A stretch of DNA of 64,000 nucleotides from Candidatus Daviesbacteria bacterium (GTDB lineage Bacteria > Patescibacteriota > Microgenomatia > Daviesbacterales > UBA10151), in contig JACOXI010000005.1 in NCBI GenBank assembly GCA_016176335.1, forward strand, positions 63,391 to 127,390, given 5' to 3'. The notes below the pieces were generated by a model. That model was not told where the DNA came from. It was given only the letters and a program-made list of their open reading frames with translations, and did not search any database. Shown in pieces: positions 10,503 through 62,084 of this stretch (within the stretch, counting starts at the first letter, position 1; every line of letters begins with the position of its first letter). The position numbers and the translations under genes were made by a program.

Positions 10503-11598
10503 TCTCTTGGGCCAGCAAAGGCTCCCACATAGCACCTGTGGCGCTCATTACACAATCTGCCCCAGCATCCTTATATTCAAAATAATCTTCTGCTTTGGTA
10601 ACTCCTCCCACACCAATTACGTTTATCGTAAATCGTAAATCGTTTATCGTTTTTCGCAGTCTCTTCACCATATCCAAGCCTGCCCATTTTATTGATGCTC
10701 CGCAAACCCCAGAGCGGGCTCTGTTTTTGCCGAGCAGCGCCTGATTTCCATCTTTATCAACAATCTCCGCTTGAATGGTATTGATGGAAGCAATAGCCTG
10801 GGCATATTGTTCACCAATTTCCACTAACTTCTTCAGATCTTCATCGCTTTGGTAATACCCCACTTTCAAAATTAAAGGAGTGACCCCAATTTCTTCTCTT
10901 ATAGCCTGACAAACCCTCTCTGTCGTCTCCAGGTTGTAACAAACCAACCCTTCATTTCCGATATTAGGACAGGACAAATTCACTTCCAAGATTTTTGCGT
11001 TTGTTTGCATCGATTGTTTTGCGGCTAAAGCATAATCCCTAACAAACTCATCCGTTGTTTGATTCTCCCTGACAGTTCCCATAAAACTTAAAACCAGAAC
11101 TTGTCCTCTTCCCGCATAAGAAATTGCCTTCTTAACATCCTCCTGCCAAACTGCCGGTTCCTTGGAAGGCACTCCAAAAGAATTAGTTATGGAAATCGGC
11201 TGCGAGTAATTATTGTCTGCCAAAAGAGGATTTTGGGCCTTCTCCAAAGTCAAATCTCCCTCAACTTTTACAGCTAAAACATTGGGGAAAGGATGGCAGG
11301 GAAAAACATCTGACCTGACTGTTTTATAGACACAAATATCAAAGCCTTTTTCAAAAGCAGCTTTACAGAATTTAGAATTGATTAAAGGCCCAGCTGGAAT
11401 ACCAAATGGCAGATGCACTTTTTGTCCTAAGAAATTGAACCTTGGTTCACCCTGAGCGAAGTCGAAGGGCTTCCCATTTGCAAATGCCCCAAACGGCCCC
11501 TGATCATAATTATCTTCATAGGATTTATTTGGATCGTAGAAAGGATCTTTAAGCATTAGGGGTATTTTAACACAAAAGTTAGACTTTCTTCTTTGCAT
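10483..11598 (-). CDS. pyrD: dihydroorotate dehydrogenase
   Basis: 371 aa. Motifs GIPAGP, LSCPN, IGVGGV. Convergent with pyrC and overlaps it by 20 nt. Carries an in-frame heptamer-repeat insert (KTINDLRFTINV). Confidence 0.75.
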   Translation of the reverse strand: MQRRKSNFCVKIPLMLKDPFYDPNKSYEDNYDQGPFGAFANGKPFDFAQGEPRFNFLGQKVHLPFGIPAGPLINSKFCKAAFEKGFDICVYKTVRSDVFPCHPFPNVLAVKVEGDLTLEKAQNPLLADNNYSQPISITNSFGVPSKEPAVWQEDVKKAISYAGRGQVLVLSFMGTVRENQTTDEFVRDYALAAKQSMQTNAKILEVNLSCPNIGNEGLVCYNLETTERVCQAIREEIGVTPLILKVGYYQSDEDLKKLVEIGEQYAQAIASINTIQAEIVDKDGNQALLGKNRARSGVCGASIKWAGLDMVKRLRKTINDLRFTINVIGVGGVTKAEDYFEYKDAGADCVMSATGAMWEPLLAQEIRKMGK

Positions 11599-14139: not shown

Positions 14140-16217
14140 TAGATCAAATTATCACTTACTCCTTTTACTTACTCTTTTTCCTAACCCCCCTTTTTTGGAC
14201 TTCTCAAAACTTTGAGCTTTTTGAATACAACAAAATGATTTTGACTTATGGAATCACAGTAATCATTGTCGGAGCCTGGATCCTTAAAGCCATAAACGAC
14301 AAACGATTAACGATCAAACGTACACCTTTAGATATACCGCTTCTTTTATTCCTAACAGCCAACATTTTATCAACTATTTTCTCCATAGACCCCCACACCT
14401 CCATTTGGGGCTATTATTCCCGCTCAAATGGCGGGCTTTTATCCATAATATCCTACCTATTATTATATTGGGCTTTTGTTTCCAATATAACTTCCGATCA
14501 AATTAAACCATTACTAAAAATTGGGCTTGTATCAGGTTTAATAATTTCCATCTGGGGTATTTCGGAACATTTTGGAGTCTCTCCCTCCTGTGTAATTTTA
14601 CGGGGACAATTTAGTGCCAATTGTTGGGTGCAAGATGTCCAAGCCAGGGTGTTTGCCACCTTGGGTCAGCCAAACTGGCTGGCAGCATATCTTGCCATGC
14701 TCATTTTCCCGGCCCTTTATTTCTTTTTGACTGCCACCACAAGATTAACCCGTACTACTTACTACTTACTACTTACTACTTACTACCTGGCCTTCACTTT
14801 TACCTATTCCAGAGGACCAACTTTGGGGCTAATTGGGGGATTTGTAGTATTTCTGTCGTTCTGGCTTGTCCAGAATCGATTCTGGAGTCGTCGCTCCGCT
14901 CCTCCCCAGAATGACACTGCTAAATTATTTGGTATTATCATTACTTCCTTCCTGGCTATTAACCTTCTCTTTGGCTCTGCCCTAACCAGCTTTAGATTAG
15001 TTTCCAAATTTGCTCCGCCTCCAAGACCTACCCTAACACTGCCTACCACCTCTGCTACCCAACTTGAGACCGGAGGCACGGAATCCGGAAAAATCAGATT
15101 AATTGTTTGGCAGGGAGCTTTGGATATTTTTAAAAACTATCCGATATTCGGCTCAGGAGTTGAGACTTTTGCTTATTCCTACTATCAATATCGTCCCTCC
15201 TCACATAACTTGACCAGTGAATGGGACTTTTTATACAACAAAGCTCATAATGAGTACTTAAATTACCTAGCAACAACTGGTTTAACAGGCTTTATTATAT
15301 ACATGGGAATAATTTTTACTTTTGTTTTTTGGAGTCTTTCAAGAATTTTAAATTTTAAATTTTCAATTTTCAATAAAAATTTTAAATTAGAAATTAAAAA
15401 TTACAAAAACGATAATTCAATAAATCTTTTATTAATAGCTCTGCTTGCATCCTATATCAGCTATCTTGTCTACAACTTTTTCTTATTCTCTGTTGTCATT
15501 ATTGCCATCTTTTTCTACCTCTTTCCCGCTCTTGCTTTTGTGGCAACAGAATCAACTAAGGTTTTTAAATGGCCTAAAAAACTATACCCTATACCCTATA
15601 CTCTATACTCTATACTTTACCGCCGTCCCATCTATACCAAAATGGTCAAAGGTATCGTGATTTTTTCTGTGCTCTTCTTTCTATATTCTATTTTCCAGCT
15701 CTGGTATGCCGACACGATTTTCAACCGTGGGCAACAAGCATCCGAGGCAGGCAATCCGGGCAGAGCTTATAATCTTTTAACAACCGCCTCGCAGTTAAAT
15801 CAGGCCGAGCCTTTTTATAGATCAGAGCTGGCTTTTTCAGCAGCTCAAGCTGCAGCTGCTTTAAAAGATACTGACGCCTCTCTTTCTGCCAAGCTTTCGG
15901 ATCAGGCCATATCTGATATGGACAGAGTTTTGCAGCAAAGTCCCCACAATGTTTCATATCTTCGAACCGCAATAAGAACCTATTTTGAGCTGGGTAGTAC
16001 TGACAAAGTCTATATAGAGAAAGCGTTGGAAGCTTTGGATAAAGCAATTTATTTGGCTCCCACCGATCCAAAACTGTATTATAACAAGGCATTAATTTTA
16101 CAATCCATGGATAAACACGATGAGGCCATAAAAGCCTTTGGGAAAGCTTTGGAATTAAAGCCTAATTATATTCAGGTTGAGGAACAACTTAAGGAAACAA
16201 CTGGATCTGCAAAATAG
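14136..16217 (+). CDS. O-antigen ligase/polymerase-like membrane protein with C-terminal TPR repeats
   Basis: 693 aa polytopic protein. Wzy_C-like segment (YNKAHNEYLNYLATTGLTGFIIY). C-terminal TPR (AIKAFGKALELKPNY). Contains three in-frame heptamer-repeat tracts. Confidence 0.6.
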   Translation: MIDQIITYSFYLLFFLTPLFWTSQNFELFEYNKMILTYGITVIIVGAWILKAINDKRLTIKRTPLDIPLLLFLTANILSTIFSIDPHTSIWGYYSRSNGGLLSIISYLLLYWAFVSNITSDQIKPLLKIGLVSGLIISIWGISEHFGVSPSCVILRGQFSANCWVQDVQARVFATLGQPNWLAAYLAMLIFPALYFFLTATTRLTRTTYYLLLTTYYLAFTFTYSRGPTLGLIGGFVVFLSFWLVQNRFWSRRSAPPQNDTAKLFGIIITSFLAINLLFGSALTSFRLVSKFAPPPRPTLTLPTTSATQLETGGTESGKIRLIVWQGALDIFKNYPIFGSGVETFAYSYYQYRPSSHNLTSEWDFLYNKAHNEYLNYLATTGLTGFIIYMGIIFTFVFWSLSRILNFKFSIFNKNFKLEIKNYKNDNSINLLLIALLASYISYLVYNFFLFSVVIIAIFFYLFPALAFVATESTKVFKWPKKLYPIPYTLYSILYRRPIYTKMVKGIVIFSVLFFLYSIFQLWYADTIFNRGQQASEAGNPGRAYNLLTTASQLNQAEPFYRSELAFSAAQAAAALKDTDASLSAKLSDQAISDMDRVLQQSPHNVSYLRTAIRTYFELGSTDKVYIEKALEALDKAIYLAPTDPKLYYNKALILQSMDKHDEAIKAFGKALELKPNYIQVEEQLKETTGSAK

Positions 16218-17064: not shown

Positions 17065-17790
17065 ATGTCAAAAGTCAAAATTATTTTTTTAGGAACTCCG
17101 CTTTTTGTTAAACTTATTAAAGATACACTGGCTAAGCATTTTACATTGGTAAAGTCACTAAAGGAGGCTGATTTAGCAGTGGTGGCGGCTTATGGCAGGA
17201 TTTTAACAAAAGATGAACTGGATATCCCTCAATATGGTTTTTTAAACATCCACCCCTCCCTTTTACCAAAATACCGGGGGCCGTCCCCAATTCAACAAGC
17301 CATCTTAAATGGAGACAAAGTATCCGGCATCACCATCATTAAAATGGATGAAGATGTGGACCATGGACCGATAATTTATCAAGAAAAATTAGAGCTTTCC
17401 GATAATGATAACTTTGATACTTTGAGTAAAAAGATGTTTCAGCTTGCAGCTCAAGTTTCACCCAAAATTATTGAAGATTTTGTATCCGGAAGAATACAAC
17501 CTACTCCACAAAATCATGATCAGGCCACCTACTGTGTTCGTCTCACCAGAGAAAGTGGGTATTTTCCTATTGATAATCCCCTCTCTGCTGAAAAATTGGA
17601 CAGGATGATTCGCGCCTATCATCCTTGGCCAGGGGTGTGGACTGTATGGGAAATCAAAAATCAAAAATCAAAAATCAAAAAGATTGTAAAGTTTCTCCCT
17701 GATGGAAGGATCCAAATGGAAGGGAAAAAAGCTATGCCGATGCGGGATTTTCTAAACGGCTACCCAGATTTTCCTTTAAAGGAACTTTAA
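17065..17790 (+). CDS. fmt: methionyl-tRNA formyltransferase (short form)
   Basis: Motifs HPSLLPKYRGPSPIQ and formyltransferase core. ATG at 17065 gives MSKVKIIFLGTP. Contains an in-frame (aatcaaa)4 tract. Confidence 0.8.
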   Translation: MSKVKIIFLGTPLFVKLIKDTLAKHFTLVKSLKEADLAVVAAYGRILTKDELDIPQYGFLNIHPSLLPKYRGPSPIQQAILNGDKVSGITIIKMDEDVDHGPIIYQEKLELSDNDNFDTLSKKMFQLAAQVSPKIIEDFVSGRIQPTPQNHDQATYCVRLTRESGYFPIDNPLSAEKLDRMIRAYHPWPGVWTVWEIKNQKSKIKKIVKFLPDGRIQMEGKKAMPMRDFLNGYPDFPLKEL

Positions 17791-20876: not shown

Positions 20877-20948
20877 GCCGAAGTGGCTCAGTGGTAGAGC
20901 ACGTTCTTGGTAAGAACGGGGTCACGGGTCCGATTCCCGTCTTCGGCT
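20877..20948 (+). tRNA. tRNA-Thr (anticodon GGU)
   Basis: Acceptor gccgaag/cttcggc, anticodon stem cgttc/gaacg with loop ttggtaa. 4 nt after the first tRNA. Confidence 0.7.
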
Positions 20949-21133
20949 CACGAGCAAAGCGAGTGAGACAAGATGGGAACAAGATCTTCGAGTGAAACGA
21001 GAAGTAGACTTATTCCCGTCTTCGGCTCCAAGGCCGCGGGTTCAGCAATTTCGAGCATTTGCGAGAAATTGGGCGTATTATCCACCACCTGCTCCTCCCT
21101 AAATTTGCTTACCATAAGATGTATAATTAGTTT

Positions 21134-27375: not shown

Positions 27376-27489
27376 TGCCAAAACTCAAATGTCAAAACTT
27401 AAAACTTAAAGATTTTAGCGCGTAGCGCGAACTTGTTCAGATTTGAGTTGTAGATTTGCGATTTGAGATCTAAGATTTAAGATAAACAA
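27376..27489. repeat. same heptamer-repeat palindromic element family, centre gcgcgtagcgcg
   Basis: aaactcaaatgtcaaaacttaaaacttaaag ... tagcgcgtagcgcga ... agatttgagttgtagatttgcgatttgagatctaagatttaagat. Confidence 0.75.
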
Positions 27490-28460: not shown

Positions 28461-30854
28461 ATGCCAAAAGGACAAAGAAAAACCAATTTTAAAAACAACC
28501 CTTCTTCTCTTATCCTCCTTTTGGTTCAATTTATCCTGATAAAAATAGGCCAGGCACCTATCTGGGTGATCAAATTATTATTATCTATAGCTGTGGGAGG
28601 CTACCTCCGAGCGCGGCGAGCCCTAGACAAGCCACGTCTGACGTGGCGAGCGTATCCGAGCCATGCACCAAGCGGTGCGTGGCGCAGGACGCTAGCGTTG
28701 GCGAGCAAGAGAGTGTGGTTGCCGACCGAAGCCACAAAGAGGCAGTATCTATTCAATCAATTCTTTCATCGTCGTCGTGGCCGGCCCAGAAAATCTTCAT
28801 TTATTCCCTACTATTTAAATAAATTTAAGTTGTTTGTCAAAAGAAGGGTGCCCAAAAAAACTAAAATAGCCGTAGTTTTTGGAGTGGGTTTAATCATACT
28901 TACTCTTTACACTCAATTCATTCTTAATGCCGCAGATACCCTGCCAAACCCTGATAAACTCATCTCTCCCAGACCTGCCACCACAGAAATATTTGACAGA
29001 AATGGCAAACTTTTATACAGAATTTATGAGGGTACAAATAGAAGTCTTGTCAGAATGGATGAATTACCAAAACATTTAATTTTGGCAACTCTTGCCTCCG
29101 AAGATAAAAATTTTTACAACCATCCGGGAGTGGATCCTGTTGCCATATTCAGGGCTTTCTATCACAATTTAAGGTTTGGCAGGACCGAGGGAGCCTCCAC
29201 CATCACCCAACAACTGATCAAAAACTCTTTTCTTACTCCGGAAAAAACTTACAGTAGAAAAATCAAAGAGGTAATTTTATCTCTGTGGACAGAAACCAGA
29301 TATTCAAAAGAGGAGATTCTTAAAATGTATTTTAATGAAGCTCCATACGGAGGGCCCAACTGGGGAATTAAGGCTGCGGCCAGATCCTACTTTGGCAAGA
29401 AACCCGTAGATTTAACTCTTGCGGAAGCAGCTTTTTTGGCAGGACTTCCCGCCTCCCCCAGCCAATTTTCCCCATATGGCGTCAGAGCCGATTTGGGAAT
29501 AGCGCGTCAAAAACAGGTTTTAAAAAGGATGTTAGATGAACATTACATCACTGACGGGGAGTATACTCAAGCAATATCGGAAAAACTGACATTCAGACCC
29601 CAAAATCAAGACATCAATGCCCCTCATTTTGTGTTCTATATCAGAGATATTCTCGCTCAACGTTACGGAGAGAAAACTGTTTCCCAGGGAGGATTAAAGG
29701 TGATCACCACTTTAGATTTGGGATTGCAAAAGGAAGTTGAAAAAATTATTTCAGATGAAATTGCAAACCTTGCCGGACTTGATGTTAAAAACGGAGCAAG
29801 CATGGTTTTGGATGCAAAAGAGGGCCAGATTTTAGCCATGGTAGGATCGCGGGATTATTCTTACCCGGAATTTGGAAATTTCAATGCCACGCTCGCCCTT
29901 CGTCAACCAGGCTCTTCAATAAAACCCATAACTTATGCCACGGCTTTCAAAGAAGGTTACTTTCCGGGAAATACTATCTTGGATTCTCCTGTCACATTCC
30001 CAGATGGAGCCAGAAATTATTCACCGATAAATTATGACGGGGTGTTTCATGGACCTGTCTCCATCCGCACTGCTTTGGGTTCATCCTTAAATGTCCCTGC
30101 TGTTAAGCTTTTGGCCAGTGTGGGTATTCCCGATATGATCAAAACCGCCCAGGATTTAGGTATCACCACCTTTGATGATCCTAAACGATTTGGTCTGTCT
30201 TTAACATTGGGTGGAGGGGAAGTAAAAATGATGGAGATGATGGGAGTTTATCAAGCTTTTTCCCAGATGGGGCTTGCTCAAAAACCTACCGGCATCTTAA
30301 AAGTGACGGATTCTGTGGGCAATATATTGGAAGAATATGAATCCCAACCCAAACAGGTACTGCAACCGGAGGTGGCATATCTTATTACCAGTATACTTTC
30401 CGATAATACGGCAAGAACTCCGGCTTTCGGACCTAATTCCCTGCTACTTATCAGAGGCAATGAAGTGGCTGTAAAAACAGGCACCTCGGATAATAAAAGG
30501 GATAATTGGACTTTTGGATACACTCCTGATTTTGTGGTTGGGGTTTGGGTGGGCAATAATGACAATACTCCCATGAACCCGCAATTAACATCAGGAATAA
30601 CCGGTGCTACCCCAATTTGGAATAAGATCATAAGAGGGCTTTTGGCACAAAAACCCAGCCTCGGATTCATCAAACCCAGTGGCATCATTGAGGCGCAAAT
30701 TGACGGCAGGAGGGATCTGGCCATTTCAGGCTTCATCCCCAAAGGATTGGTCAAGGTCCGAACCCAAGATGTTCAAACCATCTATTTTGACTCTTTTTCA
30801 TCTTATGCCACTCAATCTGCCCAGGCTGCATTGGAAAGTGGAACTAGGAACTAG
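28461..30854 (+). CDS. penicillin-binding protein 1A (bifunctional GT51 glycosyltransferase / transpeptidase)
   Basis: 797 aa. GT51 motifs (ASEDKNFYNHPGVD, TITQQL). Transpeptidase SxxK (SSIK) and KTGTS. The N-terminal cytoplasmic region contains a GC-rich in-frame element. Confidence 0.85.
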   Translation: MPKGQRKTNFKNNPSSLILLLVQFILIKIGQAPIWVIKLLLSIAVGGYLRARRALDKPRLTWRAYPSHAPSGAWRRTLALASKRVWLPTEATKRQYLFNQFFHRRRGRPRKSSFIPYYLNKFKLFVKRRVPKKTKIAVVFGVGLIILTLYTQFILNAADTLPNPDKLISPRPATTEIFDRNGKLLYRIYEGTNRSLVRMDELPKHLILATLASEDKNFYNHPGVDPVAIFRAFYHNLRFGRTEGASTITQQLIKNSFLTPEKTYSRKIKEVILSLWTETRYSKEEILKMYFNEAPYGGPNWGIKAAARSYFGKKPVDLTLAEAAFLAGLPASPSQFSPYGVRADLGIARQKQVLKRMLDEHYITDGEYTQAISEKLTFRPQNQDINAPHFVFYIRDILAQRYGEKTVSQGGLKVITTLDLGLQKEVEKIISDEIANLAGLDVKNGASMVLDAKEGQILAMVGSRDYSYPEFGNFNATLALRQPGSSIKPITYATAFKEGYFPGNTILDSPVTFPDGARNYSPINYDGVFHGPVSIRTALGSSLNVPAVKLLASVGIPDMIKTAQDLGITTFDDPKRFGLSLTLGGGEVKMMEMMGVYQAFSQMGLAQKPTGILKVTDSVGNILEEYESQPKQVLQPEVAYLITSILSDNTARTPAFGPNSLLLIRGNEVAVKTGTSDNKRDNWTFGYTPDFVVGVWVGNNDNTPMNPQLTSGITGATPIWNKIIRGLLAQKPSLGFIKPSGIIEAQIDGRRDLAISGFIPKGLVKVRTQDVQTIYFDSFSSYATQSAQAALESGTRN
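28596..28735. repeat. GC-rich ~140-bp hairpin-containing element inserted in-frame in the PBP1A N-terminal coding region (homologous to 31640..31775 in nusG)
   Basis: ggaggctacctccgagcgcggcgagccctagacaagccacgtctgacgtggc...gttggcgagcaagagagtgtggttgccgaccgaagcc. Shared blocks with the nusG copy. Internal palindrome gccacgtctgacgtggc. Confidence 0.7.
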
Positions 30855-31554: not shown

Positions 31555-32308
31555 TTTAAAACTCAAAACTCAAATGTCAAATGTCAAAGCTGGAGAGGAT
31601 CAGACAGCAAAATCTGAACCAGTTAATGATATAAGCGAAGGGAGACTGCCTCCGAACGCAGCGAGCCCTAGAGTCGCCGAAGGCGACCGTACCCGAGGCG
31701 AAGCCGAAGGCGAGCCGCAGGGCGTAAGTACCGAAGGTACAGTTGGCGAGCAAGAGAGCGGGGCGGTCGACCGATCAGGCAATCCTAACGCCAAATGGTA
31801 TGTTGTTCATACTTATTCCGGTCATGAAAACAAAGTGGCGCACACTTTAAAGCAGCGGATTGAATCCGAACATTTGGAAGAGAAAATTTTAGATGTTTTG
31901 GTGCCTATGCAGGATAAAATTGAAATAAAAGGCGGCAAAAAAGTAAGCATTAAAGAAAAAATCTTCCCCGGCTATATTTTGGTAAAAATGGTTTTGGAAG
32001 ATAGTTCCTGGCTGGCTGTCAGAACAACTCAAGGTGTCACCTCCTTTGTGGGTATGGGTAATAAACCCACCCCGATCTCCGATGCGGAGGTGGCCACCAT
32101 AGTCAAATTTACCCAAGAGGAGGCTCCTGTTTATAAGCAGGTTTTCTCTGTTTCGGATACTATCAAAATTGTGGACGGGCCTTTTGCAGATTTTATTGGT
32201 AAAGTGGATAATGTGGATGAGGAAAAAGGCAAGGTTAAGGTTTTGGTATCAATATTCGGGCGTGAAACACCAGTGGAGTTGGATTTTCTGCAGGTGCAGA
32301 AGATATGA
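31544..32308 (+). CDS. nusG: transcription termination/antitermination factor NusG with ~75-aa repeat-derived N-terminal extension
   Basis: NGN start KWYVVHTYSGHENKV and KOW C-terminus. No in-frame start codon near the NGN domain, so the extension (heptamer tract plus GC-rich element) appears to be translated. Confidence 0.85.
   Translation: MDDDLKLKTQMSNVKAGEDQTAKSEPVNDISEGRLPPNAASPRVAEGDRTRGEAEGEPQGVSTEGTVGEQESGAVDRSGNPNAKWYVVHTYSGHENKVAHTLKQRIESEHLEEKILDVLVPMQDKIEIKGGKKVSIKEKIFPGYILVKMVLEDSSWLAVRTTQGVTSFVGMGNKPTPISDAEVATIVKFTQEEAPVYKQVFSVSDTIKIVDGPFADFIGKVDNVDEEKGKVKVLVSIFGRETPVELDFLQVQKI
31640..31775. repeat. GC-rich element copy inside the nusG N-terminal extension
   Basis: gggagactgcctccgaacgcagcgagccctagagtcgccgaaggcgac...gttggcgagcaagagagcggggcggtcgaccgatcagg. 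Palindrome gtcgccgaaggcgac. Read in a different frame than the PBP1A copy. Confidence 0.7.
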
Positions 32309-32805: not shown

Positions 32806-33723
32806 ATGGGCAAGACAAAAGTAGCCATCATTGATGATTCAGCGCAAGAAGAGAATAGAGAATCAAGAATAAAGAATAAAGCCTCTAAGAAAAGGGCTAA
32901 AGCGACCGAAGTGAAGTCTGATGCAGCTTCTCGACTGTTTGAGCCAGGCGAGGATGGCCAAAAGGCTCAAGCTTTGACGAGCGTGACGCCATCCGAGCCG
33001 ATTCCGCCAAAGGCGGAAGGCGAGTTGGAGAAGCAAATTCAGACGAACGAGAGAGTACAACCTAAAAAACCTCAAAAACCAGGCAAAGCTAAGCCCCGCT
33101 CCAAGAAATACCAAGAGGTCGTAAAAGATTTGGATAGAACTAAATCCTACCCTTTAGGTGAGGCTATAGAACTTAGTAAAAAACTGTCCTATTCTAAATT
33201 CACAGGTACACTTGAAGCACATATCAATACCACTCAAACAGGAATCCGTGGTTTAGCCTCCCTTCCCTATTCTTCAGGTAAAAAATTACGCATCCTGGTC
33301 TTTGGAAAAGGTGCCAAAGACGCAGGTGCAGATCTGGTGGGTGATGATTCCACCATTGAGGCTATCTCCCAGGGCAAAATTGATTTTGACCTTCTGATAA
33401 GCACTCCTGAATGGATGCCAAAGCTTGCCAAAGTGGCAAGGGTTTTGGGACCTAAGGGGCTCATGCCCAATCCCAAAAATGGCACCATCACAGACGACCT
33501 CAAAAAAGCAGTGGAAGGATTTCAAGCCGGAAAAACAGAATACAAAACAGAGGCCAAAGCAGCAGTAATCCACCTTGGGCTGGGAAAGTTGAATCAACCT
33601 ACCGAGGAGTTATCTGCCAATGTTCAAACTTTGCTTCAAACTTTAGGCAAAACCAGAGTTAAAAAAGTCACTCTTTCCCCCACCATGGGACCATCAGTTA
33701 AAGTTGATCTAGCTTCCATGTAA
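32806..33723 (+). CDS. rplA: 50S ribosomal protein L1 with ~90-aa N-terminal extension
   Basis: L1 core starts near KKYQEVVK...EAIELSKK. N-terminal Lys/Glu-rich extension carries a GC-rich stretch. Confidence 0.85.
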   Translation: MGKTKVAIIDDSAQEENRESRIKNKASKKRAKATEVKSDAASRLFEPGEDGQKAQALTSVTPSEPIPPKAEGELEKQIQTNERVQPKKPQKPGKAKPRSKKYQEVVKDLDRTKSYPLGEAIELSKKLSYSKFTGTLEAHINTTQTGIRGLASLPYSSGKKLRILVFGKGAKDAGADLVGDDSTIEAISQGKIDFDLLISTPEWMPKLAKVARVLGPKGLMPNPKNGTITDDLKKAVEGFQAGKTEYKTEAKAAVIHLGLGKLNQPTEELSANVQTLLQTLGKTRVKKVTLSPTMGPSVKVDLASM

Positions 33724-40100: not shown

Positions 40101-41801
40101 TATACTTCTATGATGCAGGATATTGTATCTGACGTATCTAAGGAACAGCTGACAGAGGGGGCCAAAATCGAAATCGGGAAGCTGTTAGCCGAGAAATCAG
40201 TTGAGCAAAACCTGCTATTGCAGAAGCTTCAAGCTTTGGCCCCAAGTGCACAAGATACGGCCATCAGTGCTGCGGTATCAGCCACCATCTTAGGGGTGGA
40301 TAAAGCAGCAGATGTTGCTGGCGAGCCGCCAATTCCAGATGAACTCAGAAGCAAAATTGAAGCTTTGCCGGAAAAGATGATCTCAGAAGAAGACAAAAAG
40401 AAACTTTTGGAGATGAAGTCTCGAGTTGAAGCCAGACTCCAAATAGGAGGCTTGGTAGCAAACGGGGCTTTAACCCAAACTGACACCAGCTTCTTAAATG
40501 AGGATTTTGATGCTGTTGATCAAAACGCCAGAATCAAGGTGGAGGAACTCAAAAAACTAGAGGAGATTGCCGATGCTGCCGAGACCAAAGATAAACTGGA
40601 AGAAAAGATAGGTAAGAACGAAGAAATTGCCCAAAAACTCCAAGACTTTGAGAAAACCTTTGAGCCGGGCAAAGAGGTACCAGCTGAAATCCGTCCTTAT
40701 ATCCGGCTAACCCGCATTAACGAGATAGCCCAAACCGTCAGACCCGATACTATCAACCTTGAAGACTTCTCAAACCGCAAGGATCTTATGTTGGCAGTAG
40801 CCACTCTACAGGAAGAATACAGGCCCACCATAGATGCTTTAAGACAAGTAGAAGACTTTAGAAGAAGAAATCCCAATGCTGCCTTGCCGCTTACTTTGGC
40901 CCGGGTTGCGGCTTTATCCGTAAGCCTTGGGGTAAGAGAAAAAGCCGGACCATGTTATCTACCAACACCCCTCTTCCCGGCCAACACCCCTTGTCCGGCG
41001 CCGGGAGCAGCCATCCCCATTAGTTCCTTTACCGGGATCGGGCCTACCATTGTTGATGAGTTTCGCCCCGGCTGGCCAGGTTCAGCATATCCGTCAGCCT
41101 ATCAAACAGGTCCTACTACCGATAAAGATGGCAATCCCTTAGTCTATGGCCAAGGGCCTCAACCAACCAGCGCCGGGGTTTGTCCTTCAGGTTCTCACTG
41201 GATGTATGATAGTGGTGGCTGGTGTATGTCAAACAGTGGCAACTACAGTTCCTCCTATTCCTACACGCCTTCTGGCACTGGTTCCGGTTACACCCCTTAT
41301 AGTCCTTATTACACTGCCCCGGGAGCGCCTCCGGCAAGCTATGGCTACCCAGGATCCGGTTCTTATTCTAACTTCATAAACACTTACTCGCCTCCAAATT
41401 ACTGGAGTCCTGCCCCCACCAATTACACTACCACCCCACCTACTGGCACGGTGCCAGGATCTGGACCCAGGCCAACTGCTCCTGGTCAGTGTCCATCAGG
41501 GTATCATTGGATGTCTGATTCCGGTGGCTGGTGTATGGCTGACGGACCAACCTATGTACCCAGCGGCTCACCATACAATTATCCGGCGGGTACAACTACC
41601 AGTGGCGTGCCGTCAGGAAGCTTGAATTGCGGCTCCCAGAGCTTTAATCCGGCTACCGGAAGGTGCAATGATGGCGCCTGCCCCGGAGGCTTTAACTGGG
41701 ACGGCTCAAGATGTGTAGCCAGCAGTCCCAGTTACTATTCTCCTAACTTAAACCGGATATTACTGGGATGGCAGAGGCTGTATTCGCACAAGCCCTACTG
41801 A
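37137..41801 (+). CDS. giant secreted modular cysteine-rich protein (N-terminal 1554 aa before frameshift)
   Basis: Signal peptide. Three ~55-aa modules (P.NPFY.L/IK...TFTFDP...A.ERL.EA). Four Cys-rich ~45-aa modules (CPEG...C.W...GK..YD...Y.C....YYSF...KCVAS). G/S/Y/T-rich tail with CPSG[SY]HWM.DSGGWCM repeats. Confidence 0.7.
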   Translation: MVSPKKSLVAIIGLIAVSLWILIPQSAFATSSKYYDFGPYYGGSSVLGFSFSNLENLPVPQIADSLMPPKAGGILPDNPFYALEKVVENVQLTFTFDPVKKEQLRLDIASERLSEAKTLMDQGKTQAASQALDDYGQTLTALSQNLAAIAQRTDPAAQALVNKAEEVSATQAVVTQALSLTSSPAQAESWTQATNITRYSLDKVAEAKGEPAIPTEFSSSIQQLKEQGLISEEESNKLYSFKNRSEVRDELNKLSSSGQFPISEAVRLDDAVTKYFPDVQKQYLTNLQVVELKSYQTLPQPDSKTAEELKKWQANPATPPSNDIKPYLWYNRAQDLARDVDLSNFSPTQQGDLVKFYPQAVQTNPTYSPPPSPSPVPADASPAPSPTSAVPASPTPSPTPPAAEPYLQGTGGALPGEPFYFIKQWGEGLTYTFTFDPAQKARLRMQEAERRLAEAEALANDPKKATLYESTLKSYQQTLADASNIVKNLKDTKASEEAAARLEAQAARHEVVFEKGLLPPPPQNPTLTSDVIRTAEDAMDRSADVLDRPALPPVLASRLQDLKAQGLILPEEAEDLTRSASREEAREKIRKLVELNTFPPADAKKLDEAQAVVSPADYNQLVEVRKVEELQSLRSVQTDLAQTPTLRSTATTLAQKEVALTNSFDPTLIKPEDLGGKENLIKAYERLTAVPRPINGGQFGPEVTPGAQPSATPRPQDAVLSACPEGATFKQSEGCIWADNGKRINDYDQYKCEGPRQYYSFAVKKCVASDSTRGYQEDAQPICPVGYSWNWQAQSCQTATGGILPFPSPSPVVDPINDEEREARSKSCPEGASYQPPNGCVWDKTGKSVYDPEQYRCGRGQYYSFEEGKCVASPKEGEPYPKNTTPVCKEDGAYWSWNEGKCIQAVFPSEQKGGPGAIIIDEFRPPFIAPNSPFYIIKQAAERVQLAIAFTAPARERVSLSQAKERLIEAADALKRNDEGAVKKALDTYTSMMQDIVSDVSKEQLTEGAKIEIGKLLAEKSVEQNLLLQKLQALAPSAQDTAISAAVSATILGVDKAADVAGEPPIPDELRSKIEALPEKMISEEDKKKLLEMKSRVEARLQIGGLVANGALTQTDTSFLNEDFDAVDQNARIKVEELKKLEEIADAAETKDKLEEKIGKNEEIAQKLQDFEKTFEPGKEVPAEIRPYIRLTRINEIAQTVRPDTINLEDFSNRKDLMLAVATLQEEYRPTIDALRQVEDFRRRNPNAALPLTLARVAALSVSLGVREKAGPCYLPTPLFPANTPCPAPGAAIPISSFTGIGPTIVDEFRPGWPGSAYPSAYQTGPTTDKDGNPLVYGQGPQPTSAGVCPSGSHWMYDSGGWCMSNSGNYSSSYSYTPSGTGSGYTPYSPYYTAPGAPPASYGYPGSGSYSNFINTYSPPNYWSPAPTNYTTTPPTGTVPGSGPRPTAPGQCPSGYHWMSDSGGWCMADGPTYVPSGSPYNYPAGTTTSGVPSGSLNCGSQSFNPATGRCNDGACPGGFNWDGSRCVASSPSYYSPNLNRILLGWQRLYSHKPY

Positions 41802-42588: not shown

Positions 42589-42801
42589 TCCTTAATGTCA
42601 GTCAATACGACACATTGACAAACATGACATCATAAGTTAAAATAATTTGGCTTAAGACAGTGAGTGGAGCGAAGCGACATCCTGAGCATAGTCGAAGGAT
42701 GCTTTACACCATAAATCTCACCGAGGCAGTTTAGTATATCGTAAGATTGAATATCGTATATCGGAAAACCGATAAACAATAAACGATTAACGATAAACCA
42801 A

Positions 42802-42826
42802 AAACGCCTCAGAAAGGCGTTTTTTA
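42802..42826 (+). terminator. rho-independent terminator-like hairpin plus T-run abutting the rplJ start codon
   Basis: aaacgcc-tcagaaa-ggcgttttttaa, then ATG of rplJ 2 nt later. A-run on the 5' side makes it bidirectional in form. Confidence 0.5.
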
Positions 42827-44454: not shown

Positions 44455-44650
44455 ATATCTCAAAACTCAAATCGCAAAACATCAATGCTGCCTTCGGCAG
44501 AACAAAAATACAATTCAAATCTAAAATCTTTTAACGGTTTTGAGATTTAGGATGTAGATTTGACCCATTCGGCTTCGTTCAGGGTCATCCTGAGCATTGT
44601 CGAAGGATGCCATTTGAGATCTAAGATTTGAGATTTAGCACTTAAGTACT
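44455..44650. repeat. heptamer-repeat arms flanking a conserved core (ggtcatcctgagcattgtcgaaggatgc)
   Basis: Arms tctcaaaactcaaatcgcaaaac ... gatttgagatctaagatttgagatttag. Core has hairpin catcc/ggatg. Related cores at 42667..42702 and 61174..61220. Confidence 0.75.
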
Positions 44651-45238: not shown

Positions 45239-46030
45239 TCAACCCTTCAGCTGAGCTCTCAAAAGCAAATACAGGTATTGTATTAAAGCCAGCTGCCTTT
45301 TGATCCTCCATGGTTGAAGACACAACCTGAACAACCACTCAAATCCTAAATGTTGTATCCAAATTGGAGCTCTGGGAACCTTGCCGCTTATTATATCAAA
45401 TGCTCCCCCCACCCCCATAGCCACTTTAACAGGAATTTTGGGCAAATTTTTAGCAATCCATTTTTCTTGTTTTGGAGGACCAAGCGCCACAAACAAAATA
45501 CCTGTTTGTGGCAGATTTAAGATATAAGATTTAGGATTTATGATTTTCTCTCTATTCTTAAATCTTAAATCATAAATCATATCTCCATCATCATTAAAAA
45601 TCCCAACTTCACTGGCAAACGAGACTTTAAGTTTTGGATATTTCCTCTTCAAGCACTCAGCCGTTTTTTCTGCTATCTTCCCTCTCCCTCCTAAAAAGCC
45701 TGTTGTAAAACCCTTTTCTTCGGCCATCTTTACCAACCCTTCCATTACATCTATACCAGGGGTAGTCATAACTATATCACCAGTAAGTTTCAACCCTACC
45801 CCATCAGGAACTGCTAAATCCGCGTTATTTAATATCCTTTTAAATACAAGGTCTTTTTGGGCCGCGACGATAAACTCCGGATTAGGAGTTACTATGTAAT
45901 GTTTACCGGGATTCCAAATCCAATGCTCTACTATCGTAAGCGCTTCATTAAGACTTACATCATCAATTTTGATTCCCAGAACATCTACTTTCATAAATTC
46001 TCCAATACCCCAAGTGTTTCTTTTGCGCAT
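45239..46030 (-). CDS. tagA: WecB/TagA/CpsF-family glycosyltransferase
   Basis: 263 aa. Family motifs (IVTPNPEFIV, DLAVPDGVG). Contains an in-frame heptamer-repeat insert (YDLRFKNREKIINPKSYILNL). Confidence 0.75.
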   Translation of the reverse strand: MRKRNTWGIGEFMKVDVLGIKIDDVSLNEALTIVEHWIWNPGKHYIVTPNPEFIVAAQKDLVFKRILNNADLAVPDGVGLKLTGDIVMTTPGIDVMEGLVKMAEEKGFTTGFLGGRGKIAEKTAECLKRKYPKLKVSFASEVGIFNDDGDMIYDLRFKNREKIINPKSYILNLPQTGILFVALGPPKQEKWIAKNLPKIPVKVAMGVGGAFDIISGKVPRAPIWIQHLGFEWLFRLCLQPWRIKRQLALIQYLYLLLRAQLKG

Positions 46031-47160
46031 TTCTCCCAGCTAAATCTTTCTATATTATCAAGTCCCGCCTTAATAAGCTTAATTCTTAATTCTTGATTCT
46101 TTATTCTTATCATTCCCTTTACTATATCATCTACACTATATGGATTAACATAAACTGCTCCTTTACCAGCCACCTCCGGCATGGATGAAAGATTAGAAGT
46201 GATCACCGGACAACCACAAGCCTGGGCCTCCAAGATTGGCAAACCAAAACCTTCAAAAAGCGAAGGAAAAAGTAATGCTATTGCTCCGAAGTACAGTGCA
46301 GATAAATCTTTATCAGGCACATACCCCAAAAATTTTACCCTGTCCTCTATCCCTAATTTCTTTGGCAACTGATAAATTTCATCAGACAGCCAGCCTTTAG
46401 AACCTGCTATAACTAATTTCAGTGATTTATGATTTATGATTAAAGATTTATGATTTTTTATTCGTAAATCAGTATTCTTAAATCGTAAATCTTGCTCATA
46501 AATTAATTTTTCTTCAGATATAAACTTACTGAATGCAATAATTAAACGCTCGAGATTTTTACGAGGCTGTACTGTCCCCACAAACAAAAAATAACTATGA
46601 TACTTTAAATTATATTTCTTAATACTTTGAGTGTCTTTGAACTTTTCTTTATCATATCCTTCATAACTCACGCTGATTTTATCCGGTTTAATTCCCACCC
46701 TTTTGATAAGATCATCCTTAGTGGCCCGGGACACAGCAATCAAGGCAGTTGCGCTTTTTAGCTGGGAGCGGGTCATGAAATTTAAATACAACCTTTGTTT
46801 TAGCTGGTGCATGGCCGGAAGATATTCTGATCCCAAATCATGAACAGTCACCAAAGTCTTAAGTCCTGGCTTTCTAATAACCGGCAAGGTATGGGCAGGT
46901 ACAAATAACACATCAATATTGTCTTTGAAGGTCTGCAAAGCCAACCCCCCTTGAGTCCATAAAAATTTAAAATTTAAAGTTGAAAATTGAAAATTGTCAG
47001 GGAAATCTTTTTTAACAAAATTAACACCTGGCCTTAAATAAACTTGGTAAGTATTTTTCCTATCAATCCTTGCCAAAGCCTTAAGCAGTTGATAAGAATA
47101 ATTCTCTGTACCTGTTTTCTCTTTAATAAAGGCCCTGGAAGCATCAAATCCAATAATCAT
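45991..47160 (-). CDS. GT4-family glycosyltransferase
   Basis: 389 aa. EGFGLPILEAQACGCPVITS motif. Contains an in-frame heptamer-repeat insert (DLRFKNTDLRIKNHKSLIINHKSL). Confidence 0.8.
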   Translation of the reverse strand: MIIGFDASRAFIKEKTGTENYSYQLLKALARIDRKNTYQVYLRPGVNFVKKDFPDNFQFSTLNFKFLWTQGGLALQTFKDNIDVLFVPAHTLPVIRKPGLKTLVTVHDLGSEYLPAMHQLKQRLYLNFMTRSQLKSATALIAVSRATKDDLIKRVGIKPDKISVSYEGYDKEKFKDTQSIKKYNLKYHSYFLFVGTVQPRKNLERLIIAFSKFISEEKLIYEQDLRFKNTDLRIKNHKSLIINHKSLKLVIAGSKGWLSDEIYQLPKKLGIEDRVKFLGYVPDKDLSALYFGAIALLFPSLFEGFGLPILEAQACGCPVITSNLSSMPEVAGKGAVYVNPYSVDDIVKGMIRIKNQELRIKLIKAGLDNIERFSWEKCAKETLGVLENL

Positions 47161-53519: not shown

Positions 53520-53601
53520 AAAGTATTATACATAAAAAATCTCAAATGGTAAATCTCAAATGTCAAAACTAGATTTGCGTTTTGCGATTTGAGTTTTGAG
53601 A
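53520..53601. repeat. same heptamer-repeat palindromic element family
   Basis: aaatctcaaatggtaaatctcaaatgtcaaaactagatttgcgttttgcgatttgagttttgagatt. Confidence 0.75.
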
Positions 53602-54585
53602 TTACTTAATCTCCACATCGTCAACCATAGTTGACCCGTCCTCAAATACCGTGACTACTGCAAACCTTGGTAATTGCGGGTTTCGCTCGGTTCCAACCGC
53701 TCCGATTGTGACCATAGACAGGTTGGTTTCCGGTTCGTTGTATTGGCTGAAATAGTGGGTATCGCCTGCAAAGACTTTTTTCACCCCTACAAGCGCAAAA
53801 ATTAAACTTCTTGCCTGATTTTTTAACTCCTTTTCTACCCTCCCCATTATATGGTCGGATGAGGGGTGAAAAAGCGGTTCATGGACAAACACAAATATAG
53901 CCTTAACTTGCTCATCTTTTGATCTTTCCAGCTCACCTGCAACCCACTTAAGTTGTACCTCATCTATCCCTAGATAATTATCACTGTTGTCAAGCAGTAT
54001 AAATTTAAAGTTATGTAAACTGAAAGATTGATAAGTAGGACCAAAAATTTGTCTGAAATTTGTCAGCGGAGGTTGATTTTTATCTCTTGAGTCCCACAGA
54101 TCATGATCTCCGGGAATCAGAAAGTAACGCAAGTTTGCCTCATCAAACTCTTTTTTGGCTTTTTGCATCTCATCCAAAGTACCTACTTCTGTATAATCCC
54201 CCAACCCGATAACAAATTGAATATCCGGAAAGATCTGTTTGGCTTGAGAGATTGCTTTTTGCAGGTTGTTATTGTCACTGTGTGAATCCGCTACCAGCAA
54301 AAATTTAAAGACGCTCTTGGGACTTGTTTTGGGAACGGGGGTGGAAGCAGTTAGATTTTGGGGCAATAATTTTTGATCTCCAATTTTAACCTTGGAAAGC
54401 AAGGTTAATGCCTCATTCGCGACTGATTTTGGATCAAGCTTTAAAGGATCCAAACCGGAAAAGTGCTTGTACGCGGAATATACCCCGCCTAAAAGTATAG
54501 TAAATATAATAAGGCTTAATATAAACCTGAATAAAATAAATATGGGATTGGCAGATTTTCTACCGCTGTGTTTTCTAAACATCAC
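53602..54585 (-). CDS. calcineurin-like metallophosphoesterase (membrane-anchored)
   Basis: 327 aa. Motifs LVADSHSD, GLGDYTEVG, IPGDHDLW. Confidence 0.7.
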   Translation of the reverse strand: MMFRKHSGRKSANPIFILFRFILSLIIFTILLGGVYSAYKHFSGLDPLKLDPKSVANEALTLLSKVKIGDQKLLPQNLTASTPVPKTSPKSVFKFLLVADSHSDNNNLQKAISQAKQIFPDIQFVIGLGDYTEVGTLDEMQKAKKEFDEANLRYFLIPGDHDLWDSRDKNQPPLTNFRQIFGPTYQSFSLHNFKFILLDNSDNYLGIDEVQLKWVAGELERSKDEQVKAIFVFVHEPLFHPSSDHIMGRVEKELKNQARSLIFALVGVKKVFAGDTHYFSQYNEPETNLSMVTIGAVGTERNPQLPRFAVVTVFEDGSTMVDDVEIK

Positions 54586-56201
54586 ATCCTTTCTGGTGCC
54601 GAAACTCCCAAAAGTTTTAAAGTATTTGCTAAAGTGATTTTGCAGGATTTAACCAAAGCAAGCCTTGCTTTCACTAATCCTGAAGTTTCTGCAGATAGAA
54701 CCGGACAGGTTTCATAAAACTTATGGAAAAAGTCAGCTAGAGATATGGCATACTCTGTTAGCTGATGAACTTGGAGATTAATAGCTAATTCTGACACTAA
54801 ATCAGGAAAATATAAAAGATGTTTTATCAAATTAAGCTCATATTCGGTCTGTAATTGTCCAAAATCCACATTTTGGAATTTGGAATTTGTGATTTGAGAT
54901 TTGAGCAATATATTACTCATCCTGGCATGAGCATACTGAACATAGAAAACCGGATTCTTGCTTGATTGTTCTTTTACAAGCTCAAGATCAAAATCCATGT
55001 GAGTTTGAGGGGCAAACCGCAGAAGATAAAATCTGAAAGCATCCACCCCTACCTCATCCAACACCTCTCTGGCCGTAATAAAATTACCAGCTCTTTTACT
55101 CATTTTAACGATATCAGAACCCCTCTTTACTCGAACATACTGATACAAAATTACTTTTAATCTTTTGGGGTCAAACCCTAAAGCAGAAGCTGCAGCTTGT
55201 AATCTTGACACATGACCATGATGGTTACTCCCAAATACATCAATAATTGGATCTGCTCCAGATTCAAATTTGATTTTGTGATAAACAATGTCCGCAGTAA
55301 AATATGTATATCCTCCATCGGATTTTTGAATAACTGTCTCACGATCTTTTAAAAACTCATCTTTGGGTGCCAGCCACAAAGCACCCTCTTTTTCCTTTAA
55401 TACTCCTGCCTTTTTAAGTTGTGCCAAAACTTGGGCAGCCTCTTTTCTCAAATCGGATTCATGTACAACAAGATCAAATTTAATTCCCATTGAGTGACAG
55501 TCTGCCAAAATTTCCTGATGCAAAAGAGCAACTGCCATCATGCCTGTTTCCTCATCACTCTTTCCTTCCATATCAGCACCCAAATTTTTTACCAGATCAT
55601 CTATATACCCGCCTTTGTATTGTTTTTCCTCCGGCAAATCTTTGTGGTATTTTGCCCTGATAGTTGCCCCCAAAGCCTTAATTTGTTCACCAACATCATT
55701 ATTAAGAAATTCCCTAATCACCTCATACCCTTGAGATAATAAAACATTGGCAATCACATCACCTAAAGGCCCGCCTCGGGCATTACCCATATGCAAGGGA
55801 CCGGTGGGGTTGGCGGAAACATATTCCACTCTTGCTTTCTTATCTTCTCCCAAACTAGAGCTACCAAAGTTCTTGTCTTTTTCTAAGATTTCTTTTAAAT
55901 CTTGGGCTAATTTTTCAGCTTTTACAAAAAAATTTATAAAACCGCTACCGGCAATTTTAATTTCAGAGAAATTATCCTGAGCGGAGTCGAAGGACTTCAA
56001 CTTTTCAATAATTTCATTAGCAATTTCTGTTGGAGACTGCTTATTGGAAACTCCTTCCAGTTTAGCAAGCTGCAAAGCCAAATTCGTAGTATAATCTCCA
56101 AATTGGGGATTTTTAGGAATAGATAAAACTATATCAATGGCTAGAAAGCCTAAATCCCCAATTACCTTTTTTAAATCAGCTAAAATTTGATCCTTCACCA
56201 T
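54582..56201 (-). CDS. argS: arginyl-tRNA synthetase
   Basis: 539 aa. Class I motifs (SANPTGPLHMGNARGG, KMSKRAGN). Confidence 0.9.
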   Translation of the reverse strand: MVKDQILADLKKVIGDLGFLAIDIVLSIPKNPQFGDYTTNLALQLAKLEGVSNKQSPTEIANEIIEKLKSFDSAQDNFSEIKIAGSGFINFFVKAEKLAQDLKEILEKDKNFGSSSLGEDKKARVEYVSANPTGPLHMGNARGGPLGDVIANVLLSQGYEVIREFLNNDVGEQIKALGATIRAKYHKDLPEEKQYKGGYIDDLVKNLGADMEGKSDEETGMMAVALLHQEILADCHSMGIKFDLVVHESDLRKEAAQVLAQLKKAGVLKEKEGALWLAPKDEFLKDRETVIQKSDGGYTYFTADIVYHKIKFESGADPIIDVFGSNHHGHVSRLQAAASALGFDPKRLKVILYQYVRVKRGSDIVKMSKRAGNFITAREVLDEVGVDAFRFYLLRFAPQTHMDFDLELVKEQSSKNPVFYVQYAHARMSNILLKSQITNSKFQNVDFGQLQTEYELNLIKHLLYFPDLVSELAINLQVHQLTEYAISLADFFHKFYETCPVLSAETSGLVKARLALVKSCKITLANTLKLLGVSAPERM

Positions 56202-56340
56202 AAGTTAATAATAGCATATCTCAAATGTCAAAACTCAAATGTCAAATCTGAATCTTAAAACTTAAAACTAGACTAAAACAGTTTTGAGATTTAAGTTTTA
56301 GTTTTGAGTTTTGCGATTTGCGTTTTGAGTTAACATTAGC
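56202..56340. repeat. palindromic composite intergenic element built from degenerate heptamer repeats (tcaaatg arm / cattttga arm)
   Basis: Left arm tctcaaatgtcaaaactcaaatgtcaaatctgaatcttaaaacttaaaac, centre tagactaaaacag, right arm ttttgagatttaagttttagttttgagttttgcgatttgcgttttgag. The arms are reverse complements of each other. Confidence 0.8.

Positions 56341-60791: not shown

Positions 60792-62084
<1,293 letters not shown>

Follow-up and report, generated by a model that had tools for sequence, protein, structure and literature searches.

Short hairpin repeats in a Daviesbacteria genome and their possible kinship with the inverted ends of Slx1-like GIY-YIG nuclease cassettes

This report concerns a hairpin of about 30 nt that recurs in the genome of a Candidatus Daviesbacteria bacterium, a member of the Candidate Phyla Radiation (CPR), and in many other bacteria. 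The window, meaning the whole stretch of DNA that was analysed, comprises 64,000 nt (contig JACOXI010000005.1 of assembly GCA_016176335.1, positions 63,391 to 127,390) and holds the hairpin both in spacers and inside two genes. On the reading favoured here, to which a probability of roughly 0.6 is given, the copies in the window count as solo, non-autonomous representatives of a family of hairpins that form the inverted ends of small cassettes encoding an Slx1-like GIY-YIG nuclease.

Hairpin copies in the Daviesbacteria window

Three spacer copies of the hairpin core had been reported by the original prediction, and the core CCTGAGC-NNN-GTCGAAGG is present at all three sites. Two sites, 42678-42701 and 44586-44609, match the pattern CATCCTGAGCNNNGTCGAAGGATG exactly, against 0 matches in 100 dinucleotide-preserving shuffles, and the third site, at about 61191-61220, holds a decayed copy; the sites had been placed correctly, with start positions off by 1-3 nt. 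The shorter core CCTGAGCNNNGTCGAAGG has four exact plus-strand copies (11451, 42681, 44589 and 55976) and a related one with 3 mismatches at 61197, while copies 2 and 3 are each immediately preceded by a copy in reverse complement. The count of three was incomplete. When the window is scored with a covariance model made only from other organisms' hairpins, and only from those with 12-nt cores because MAFFT misplaced a 1-nt gap when 11-nt and 12-nt cores were mixed, five strong copies emerge (29.8-39.2 bits; E = 1e-6 to 1e-9), two of them in genes, together with one decayed copy at 16.7 bits; this model gives no further match in the window below E = 0.04. Stems of the window copies measure 4-7 bp, the core GAGC-NNN-G(T)CGA being enclosed by complementary arms of at least 4 bp. 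The copies and their fragments are as follows.

11445-11474, plus strand: hairpin in a DHODH-like gene; 39.2 bits, the best score in the window.
42667-42677, plus strand: forward core fragment GAGCGAAGCGA without a stem, immediately before copy 1 (regular-expression scan, sequence).
42675-42704, plus strand: hairpin copy 1, CATCCT / GAGCATAGTCGA / AGGATG; 33.7 bits, E = 7e-8, with a 6-bp stem in the DNA fold.
44563-44585, minus strand: decayed inverted copy head-to-head with copy 2, reverse complement CCTGAACGAAGCCGAATG; 3 mismatches, not significant alone with the covariance model.
44583-44612, plus strand: hairpin copy 2, GGTCATCCT / GAGCATTGTCGA / AGGATGCC; 35.9 bits, fold -5.0 kcal/mol, z = -1.9.
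55970-55999, plus strand: hairpin in the arginyl-tRNA synthetase (ArgRS) gene; 34.3 bits.
61168-61197, minus strand: intact inverted hairpin, reading GATACT / TCGACTTCGCTC / AGTATC on the plus strand; 29.8 bits, E = 1e-6, 7-bp stem.
61191-61220, plus strand: hairpin copy 3 in decayed form, ATCCTGAGTGTAATCGAATGAT, which meets the hairpin at 61168-61197 head-to-head; 16.7 bits, E = 0.013, 3 core mismatches.

Copy 1 occupies the spacer between a secreted-protein gene and rplJ, upstream of the latter; copy 2 lies in a convergent spacer, and copy 3 in the divergent spacer upstream of leuS. A cttcgRcttcgYtc block had been described before copies 2 and 3, and it is there, not as a separate block but as the reverse complement of the same core, which at copy 3 belongs to a full hairpin; the gagcgaagcg before copy 1, taken to be its inversion, is instead the stemless forward core listed above. 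Neither the copies inside genes nor the arrangement in inverted doublets had been noticed, nor had the link to a nuclease gene described below. The 100-nt flanks of the window copies are 0.50-0.64 identical, against a random mean of 0.53, and the copies are therefore not the product of one recent duplication, the event that had been named as the refutation of their significance. A hairpin-like match at 20944-20970, an 11-nt core variant (CTCAC GAGCAAAGCGA GTGAG) over the 3' end of tRNA-Thr(GGU), is absent from the covariance-model matches and is possibly due to chance.

The two in-gene copies, both antisense to the hairpin's conserved strand, are read in-frame. Within the DHODH-like gene (PF01180; 10483-11598, minus strand), the hairpin encodes ...GKPFDFAQGEP... 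in a surface loop at which most of 120 DHODH-like homologues read DGKVFEQxGEP and about 20 carry inserts. These inserts comprise FD[FYS]AQG, with the hairpin antisense, PERSRG or PEQSRG, with the hairpin sense, and longer composites, and they stand before or after VFEQ; the DNA of a filled (L313), a sense-orientation (L314) and an empty (L315) allele confirms the hairpin sequence. In L313 and at 11440-11480 of the window, the GGTGAACC (Gly-Glu-Pro) that follows the inserted hairpin repeats the original GGTGAACC(C) just upstream, so that the protein reads GEP-FDYAQ-GEP. Since the hairpin of an unrelated organism (L141) also carries GGGTGAAC, this repeat may be element sequence that met a similar target (microhomology), not a target-site duplication. 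In the ArgRS gene (54582-56201, minus strand), the peptide encoded by the hairpin, ...KSFDSAQDNF..., falls in a hypervariable loop belonging to the N-terminal domain. There, TCC TTC GAC T(C/T)C GCT CAG GA(T/C) is common to the window and three relatives; two other relatives have GAT/AAT CCC TCG ACT TCG CTC GG(G/A) ACA, which is the same element with a CCC/GGG stem, read in another frame as PSTSLGTG. The orthologous leuS spacer varies in a similar manner, as the window has a doublet within a heptamer block of about 190 nt, L125 has neither, and L123 lacks the block and carries a different hairpin, with an 11-nt core, beyond a conserved block. Taken together, the patterns at DHODH, ArgRS and the leuS spacer require several independent gains.

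The hairpin family and the nuclease cassettes associated with it

A pattern scan of one genome per species with ATCCTGAGCNNNGTCGAAGGAT (19 bases) found the hairpin in at least 120 genome stretches from nearly all bacterial phyla, with unrelated flanks. The matches include CPR lineages (Saccharimonadia, Peregrinibacteria, Levybacteria and Daviesbacteria) as well as Acidobacteriota, Bacteroidota, Alphaproteobacteria (Hyphomonas, Henriciella), Planctomycetota (Scalindua), Firmicutes, Verrucomicrobiota, Spirochaetota, Nitrospirota, Chloroflexota, Gemmatimonadota and others. The family consensus consists of (T)GTCA, a variable stem of 5-8 bp, GAGC-GNA-G(T)CGA and the complementary stem, with no flank similarity outside roughly (T)GTC-ATCC...GGAT-C/GAC; the central three bases are mostly GNA (GAA 78, GGA 34, GTA 22, GCA 17). 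At the 5' terminus, copy 2 of the window reads GGTCA, the DHODH copy GTTCA and copy 1 CGACA, and the remaining copies are without (T)GTCA, departures that fit decayed solo copies.

Among 211 core matches other than the 128 seeded ones, 61 have at least 4 consecutive Watson-Crick pairs beside the core, where 0.8 would be expected, and the stems in seeded loci include 22 different 5-nt arm sequences. The test for structural covariation that had been proposed supports a covarying stem: in a set of 53 distinct hairpins, two-sided changes are seen at five stem pairs and amount to 73 cells versus 17.7 ± 3.3 in shuffles. Shifting the partner by ±1-3 columns lowers pairing from 95% to 31-49%; as the set was preselected for a stem of at least 4 bp, the percentage paired follows by construction, whereas the diversity of pair types does not. 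A long nested helix, a G+C-rich stem-loop, can occupy the triloop position (L006 560-612; L057 4620-4670), which suggests an internal loop, made of the conserved TGAGC and GTCGAA bases, that separates an outer stem from a variable inner one. The core might also be read as a GA/AG tandem capped by a GC-GNA-G(T)C mini-hairpin, beyond the reach of the energy model; the d(GCGAAGC) mini-hairpin is known for its stability. Hairpins also occur nested in the loop of another hairpin, as in GTCATCCCGAGC|CCTTCGACTTCGCTCAGGGTGAACTCC|GCGAGGGATC (L141 1155-1207), an arrangement suggesting that the loop is a permissive and preferred insertion point. Likenesses to hammerhead-like motifs, the tRNA T-arm, RNase P CR-I, CsrA sites and K-turns were dropped, given the variable stem, partial matches and no model match, and an intrinsic (Rho-independent) terminator was ruled out by the 12-nt loop and the absence of a T-run after the stem of every window copy from 1 to 3. 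A canonical terminator, separate from copy 1, is found at 42805-42826, about 100 nt downstream of it.

All-against-all clustering of 2,097 open reading frames (ORFs) of at least 90 aa, from 120 hairpin loci, yielded GIY-YIG proteins as the only recurrent hairpin-adjacent family, and no recurrent transposase family, within a comparison that did not extend to a Y1 profile search or to whole genomes. A small GIY-YIG gene lies 11-230 nt from a hairpin in four loci of four phyla, namely Hyphomonas (L006), Bacteroidota (L057), Spartobacteria (L084) and Ruminococcus (L094). The proteins match Pfam PF01541 (GIY-YIG) at E = 8.8e-19, comprise 88-121 aa (about 95 aa), consist of the catalytic domain only and are Slx1/UPF0213-like, their closest solved relatives by sequence being the UPF0213 proteins of PDB 1zg2 and 1ywl (E = 0.003). 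In 36 diverse members, the active-site Tyr, Tyr, Gly, Arg, His and Glu do not vary. The nuclease family is very large, since at least 7,982 clusters among the 8,000 candidates that were scored reach E <= 1e-8; members sharing 70-77% identity with one query are named from both Desulfobacterales and Clostridia, and many members lie on contigs shorter than 3 kb, as is expected of repeats that break assemblies.

The link between gene and hairpin was examined independently in 80 metagenome loci seeded only on the GIY-YIG protein, by means of a two-sequence alignment, a five-sequence one being too divergent for locus search. With the strict pattern, hairpins occur at 1.8 per kb in the 200 nt upstream and 1.5 per kb in the 200 nt downstream of the gene, with none inside it and mostly 0-0.25 per kb (about 0.07 overall) beyond 400 nt. 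With the covariance model, their density is 4.86 per kb within 150 nt versus 0.116 per kb beyond 500 nt, a 42-fold difference; a hairpin lies no more than 150 nt from the gene in 53 of the 80 loci, and in 33 loci a forward one upstream is combined with a reverse one downstream. The ratio of forward to reverse hairpins is 43:14 upstream and 13:43 downstream.

The gene and its hairpins make up a discrete unit. In all-against-all blastn comparisons, homology between loci is limited to the gene plus its hairpins, as in L149 (340-726) versus L186 (399-782), which are 71% identical over a segment whose two ends fall within 0 to +1 nt of the outer hairpin edges, the adjoining sequence being unrelated for at least 150 nt in each direction; in pairs involving L138, L156, L180 and L190, the right-hand homology edge is exact. 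The resulting cassette is about 0.4 kb long, has the nuclease as its only gene, begins and ends with TGTCAT...ATGACA and is flanked by genes that are unrelated between loci. The two end hairpins are identical to each other in L186, L191 and L203 and different between cassettes. Gene-less doublets in the cassette orientation (+-), with 20-45 nt between the arms, are common, and L198 contains one cassette and two such doublets, all sharing the subterminal sequence CTCATCGCCGTCGA. These doublets, with a length of about 100 nt, inverted arms of about 45 nt and ends in common with a gene-bearing element, resemble MITEs (miniature transposable elements with inverted repeats), from which the present system differs in that a target-site duplication was not observed and a DDE transposase plays no part, while single 30-nt hairpins are far smaller than any MITE.

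Two further observations concern the cassettes. L137 and L145, metagenome contigs of 27-28% G+C from related genomes, each hold two paralogous GIY-YIG genes about 1.3 kb apart with no covariance-model hairpin immediately adjacent, which means that not every member of the subfamily keeps hairpin ends. On the outer side of cassettes in L094 (4800-4975 and 5335-5490) and L129 (150-215 and 1620-1800) are tandem units of 20-22 nt, each made of the 5' half of the hairpin, GTCATCYCGARC, and about 9 variable bases; up to 7 units are followed by a complete hairpin, and such arrays could be iteron-like protein-binding arrays or footprints of repeated events.

Origin of the hairpins and rival explanations

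In the mechanism proposed, the complete form of the element would be a nuclease cassette of about 0.4 kb with the hairpin as its terminal inverted repeat, and the nuclease would recognise and cut this hairpin in its extruded or single-stranded state. Copying or insertion initiated by the nuclease would disperse cassettes, doublets and solo hairpins alike, the last of these being either mobilised in trans or preserved as relics. We infer the cutting and copying step from the cassette architecture and from the activity of eukaryotic Slx1, a structure-specific nuclease acting on branched and stem-loop DNA (PMC1564403); recognition, cleavage and mobilisation by the bacterial protein would follow by analogy. 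The stand-alone Slx1-like/UPF0213 proteins (1zg2, 1ywl; the E. coli YhbQ type) have the same minimal architecture as the cassette proteins. They are classed as the bacterial Slx1 family and regarded as vertically inherited repair proteins, and the source describes neither flanking repeats nor mobility for this bacterial group (PMC1564403), unlike what is seen in the cassettes. The window copies themselves are probably passive passengers, adding 5-8 residues to tolerant protein loops and sitting in spacers already filled with heptamers. Of the kinds of function that the original prediction offered for the core, a protein-recognition or recombination site is the most likely one.

Several observations weigh against this reading. 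The gene stands beside the hairpin in only about 3% of hairpin-seeded genome loci, most hairpins being solo, and the queries for the protein-seeded sample were first found next to hairpins, so that the link measured there may hold for one subfamily only. No GIY-YIG gene was detected in the window by tblastn (E up to 1, five queries) or in 14 CPR loci carrying the hairpin, and no CPR name is found among the top 120 nuclease relatives; mobilisation in trans within this organism is consequently unsupported. Head-to-head (-+) doublets, the type seen in the window, number 24 versus 29 of the (+-) type that simple internal deletion of a cassette would be expected to leave, and the window doublets are not a simple deletion product. 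No target-site duplication is evident at the cassette termini compared, and GIY-YIG enzymes are not known to be transposases. The predicted folds of the window hairpins have modest stability (z = -1.0 to -2.3) and neither in-gene copy has the hairpin in its minimum-energy fold, although nearest-neighbour folding ignores GA/AG tandem pairs and GNA triloops, making these energies weak evidence either way. Lastly, the data fit the hairpin as the end of an element and the hairpin as the insertion site of the gene alike, and cannot tell the two apart.

That second possibility, in which the hairpin is a host or independently spreading element that serves as the preferred homing site of free-standing GIY-YIG genes landing in the middle of a doublet, is the strongest of the rivals, if an unlikely one. 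Homing endonucleases are the classic form of GIY-YIG enzyme, solo copies make up about 97% of hairpins, the gene-less (+-) doublets are common, and the nested hairpins of L141 suggest that a hairpin can be a target. Free-standing homing genes such as phage T4 Seg and the I-TevI relatives are likewise small selfish cassettes with a GIY-YIG domain in many contexts. However, the known enzymes of this kind have extra DNA-binding modules, a conserved host-gene target and no hairpin ends, whereas the cassette protein is a bare Slx1-like core of about 95 aa with an intact active site, flanked by inverted hairpins. Cassette homology, moreover, takes in the hairpins and ends at their outer edges, and the paired hairpins are often identical within a cassette and different between cassettes (L186, L191, L203), which fits co-inheritance with the gene.

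Rather less probable still is an action of the hairpin as RNA, whether it terminates transcripts, stabilises mRNA 3' ends, marks a processing site or serves as a protein-binding motif, the association with the gene then reflecting regulation. In the hairpin-seeded loci, 17% of hairpins lie inside ORFs, which cover 84% of the sequence, and convergent spacers hold more of them than divergent ones (38 versus 16), both as such a role would have it; the conserved internal loop, variable stem and occasional nested inner helix also resemble an RNA motif. Yet Rfam detects only tRNAs at the gathering threshold in the whole window, no match on the hairpin (copy-2 region) at E up to 10 and, for five complete cassettes, none at E up to 1. 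The stems of copies 1 to 3 are not followed by a T-run; strand preference in codirectional spacers is not clear (42 same-strand versus 30 opposite); the inverted orientation at cassette ends makes one end antisense; copy 3 lies in a divergent promoter spacer; and the in-gene copies are antisense to the conserved strand. A small-RNA seed, another of the functions that had been suggested for the core, finds no support, there being no Rfam match and no clear strand bias, besides antisense copies in coding DNA.

Mobilisation of the hairpins in the manner of repetitive extragenic palindromic (REP) repeats and their doublets (REPINs) by a REP-associated tyrosine transposase (RAYT), an IS200-like Y1/HUH enzyme, is highly improbable. 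The resemblance to the systems of Enterobacteria and Pseudomonas is considerable: REPs are imperfect palindromes of 20-40 nt in hundreds of mostly intergenic copies, often as inverted doublets and with a conserved 5' tetranucleotide, and here too short imperfect palindromes are mostly intergenic, frequently form doublets (inverted +- 29 and -+ 24; direct 18), share a 5' GTCA and enclose a single small nuclease-type gene. Unlike REPs, which begin with GTAG plus a palindrome, the hairpin has a consensus 5' end of TGTCA; its loop is conserved rather than its stem; the nuclease is of the GIY-YIG class; copies enter coding regions; and one sequence is common to the at least 120 genome stretches across phyla, REPs being lineage-specific. 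The clustering of 2,097 ORFs, in which a Y1 profile search had no part, gave no recurrent transposase. Finally, chance similarity or the remains of one recent local duplication can be dismissed for the three spacer copies, since the only point in its favour, the heptamer context common to copies 2 and 3 (flank identity 0.64), is outweighed by 0 matches in 100 shuffles, flanks at random identity, E-values of 1e-6 to 1e-9 with an external model and thousands of relatives elsewhere. Carriage of the cassette by phage, also considered, is unsupported, as only 1 of the 106 viral contig stretches with the hairpin has a GIY-YIG gene nearby.

Returning to the reading of the window copies as members of a cassette-end family, a wider proposal is advanced more tentatively, at somewhat less than even odds: that Slx1-like GIY-YIG genes with inverted hairpins constitute an unrecognised and very widespread class of mobile element, whose ends proliferate by themselves in almost every phylum and have colonised CPR genes in-frame, and that a family regarded as serving 'repair' is largely selfish. 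No published description of the hairpin sequence, its peptide signatures or its association with GIY-YIG genes was found in a search that left most subscription journals outside. Relative to REP/RAYT, Rickettsia palindromic elements (RPEs), MITEs and homing endonuclease genes, the system is new in its nuclease class, its conserved loop with a variable stem, its pan-phylum occurrence and its in-frame colonisation of genes. RPEs are the closest parallel to the last of these, because they also enter coding genes, including essential ones, in-frame within a reduced genome and add short peptides to tolerant loops; they differ in being 100-150 bp long, confined to Rickettsia, without a known enzyme and unrelated in sequence context to the nuclease-linked, pan-bacterial hairpin of about 30 nt.

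If the account given here is correct, it would supply a role and a DNA substrate for one of the largest uncharacterised families of bacterial nucleases and add GIY-YIG to the nuclease classes tied to interspersed palindromic repeats. It would also account for a repeat at which metagenome assemblies break and from which spurious ORFs arise, as do odd peptide inserts (FDFAQG, PSTSLG, PERSRG) in proteins annotated from many phyla. In streamlined CPR genomes, essential genes such as that for ArgRS withstand repeated in-frame invasion, in parallel with the RPEs of Rickettsia, and the covariance model can mask hairpin sites in annotation.

Heptamer arrays and other features of the window

Hairpin copies 2 and 3 lie inside arrays of tandem heptamers, two of which form arms around them.

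44457-44485 (partner 44612-44636): array of NCTCAAA-type heptamers that makes up one arm of the palindromic spacer surrounding copy 2 (Tandem Repeats Finder (TRF) period 7, inverted repeats).
61086-61130 (partner 61216-61244): heptamer array arm around copy 3 (TRF period 7, inverted repeats).

The original prediction took the core to be carried by composite elements that include such arms. Its view of the core as a discrete conserved unit, independent of the variable heptamer arms, is upheld; carriage by composite elements is not, since arms are missing around the two in-gene copies of the window and around all copies in other organisms, where the flanks are unrelated. It follows that the arrays are a property of this genome's spacers and not of the hairpin. 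Period 7 accounts for 48 of the 98 TRF tandem-repeat rows of the window, and as arrays, often inverted, fill most spacers, their co-location with hairpins is expected. Examples include 10620-10656, 15344-15407, 15582-15616, 17651-17681, 27439-27483, 32852-32881, 46078-46109, 53537-53603, 56218-56331, 60892-60921 and 61304-61335. The units are diverse (CGTTTAT, AATTTTA, CTATACT, AAATCAA, AGATTTG, AGAATAA and others), and inverted pairs are exemplified by 56215-56262 and 56280-56327. No described equivalent of such arrays is known from CPR genomes, the nearest likeness being the short tandemly repeated repetitive (STRR) heptamers of cyanobacteria.

Like the hairpin, heptamer repeats invade coding sequence here, as AGATTTA/TGATTTA arrays at 45513-45546 and 46423-46456 lie within the minus-strand ORFs 45239-46030 and 45991-47160 and are translated in-frame (DLRFKNREKIINPKS and DLRFKNTDLRIKNHKSLIINHKSL). 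Other in-frame segments, rich in G+C, are found in the N-terminal regions of a PBP1-like gene (28590-28720) and nusG (31620-31790); they have in common a 33-nt repeat, GGGAGRCTRCCTCCGARCGCRGCGAGCCCTAGA, with 88% identity, as well as another block, GTTGGCGAGCAAGAGAG; stemless cores resembling GAGCGCGGCGA occur in them, and they may represent a related or a separate family of coding inserts. Upstream of leuS, the block GGGTTTAGGG-NCT-NGGG...TATAG...GATCAGAATA is kept in three Daviesbacteria (window 61005-61045; L123 5389-5425; L125 2180-2215), the rest of the spacer not being conserved; it contains the heptamer-like units GGTTTAG GGACTAG GGTGTAG AGTATAG and may be a promoter or operator. Between 37137 and 42588, a secreted protein of 1,554 aa and the next ORF, of 237 aa, contain repeated Cys-rich modules (CPSG-S/Y-HWMSD-N/S-GGWCM), located at 41164, 41473, 42254 and 42377, besides low-complexity tails rich in Pro, Thr and Ser, and the G+C content of this region is 48-49%, versus about 40% elsewhere in the window.

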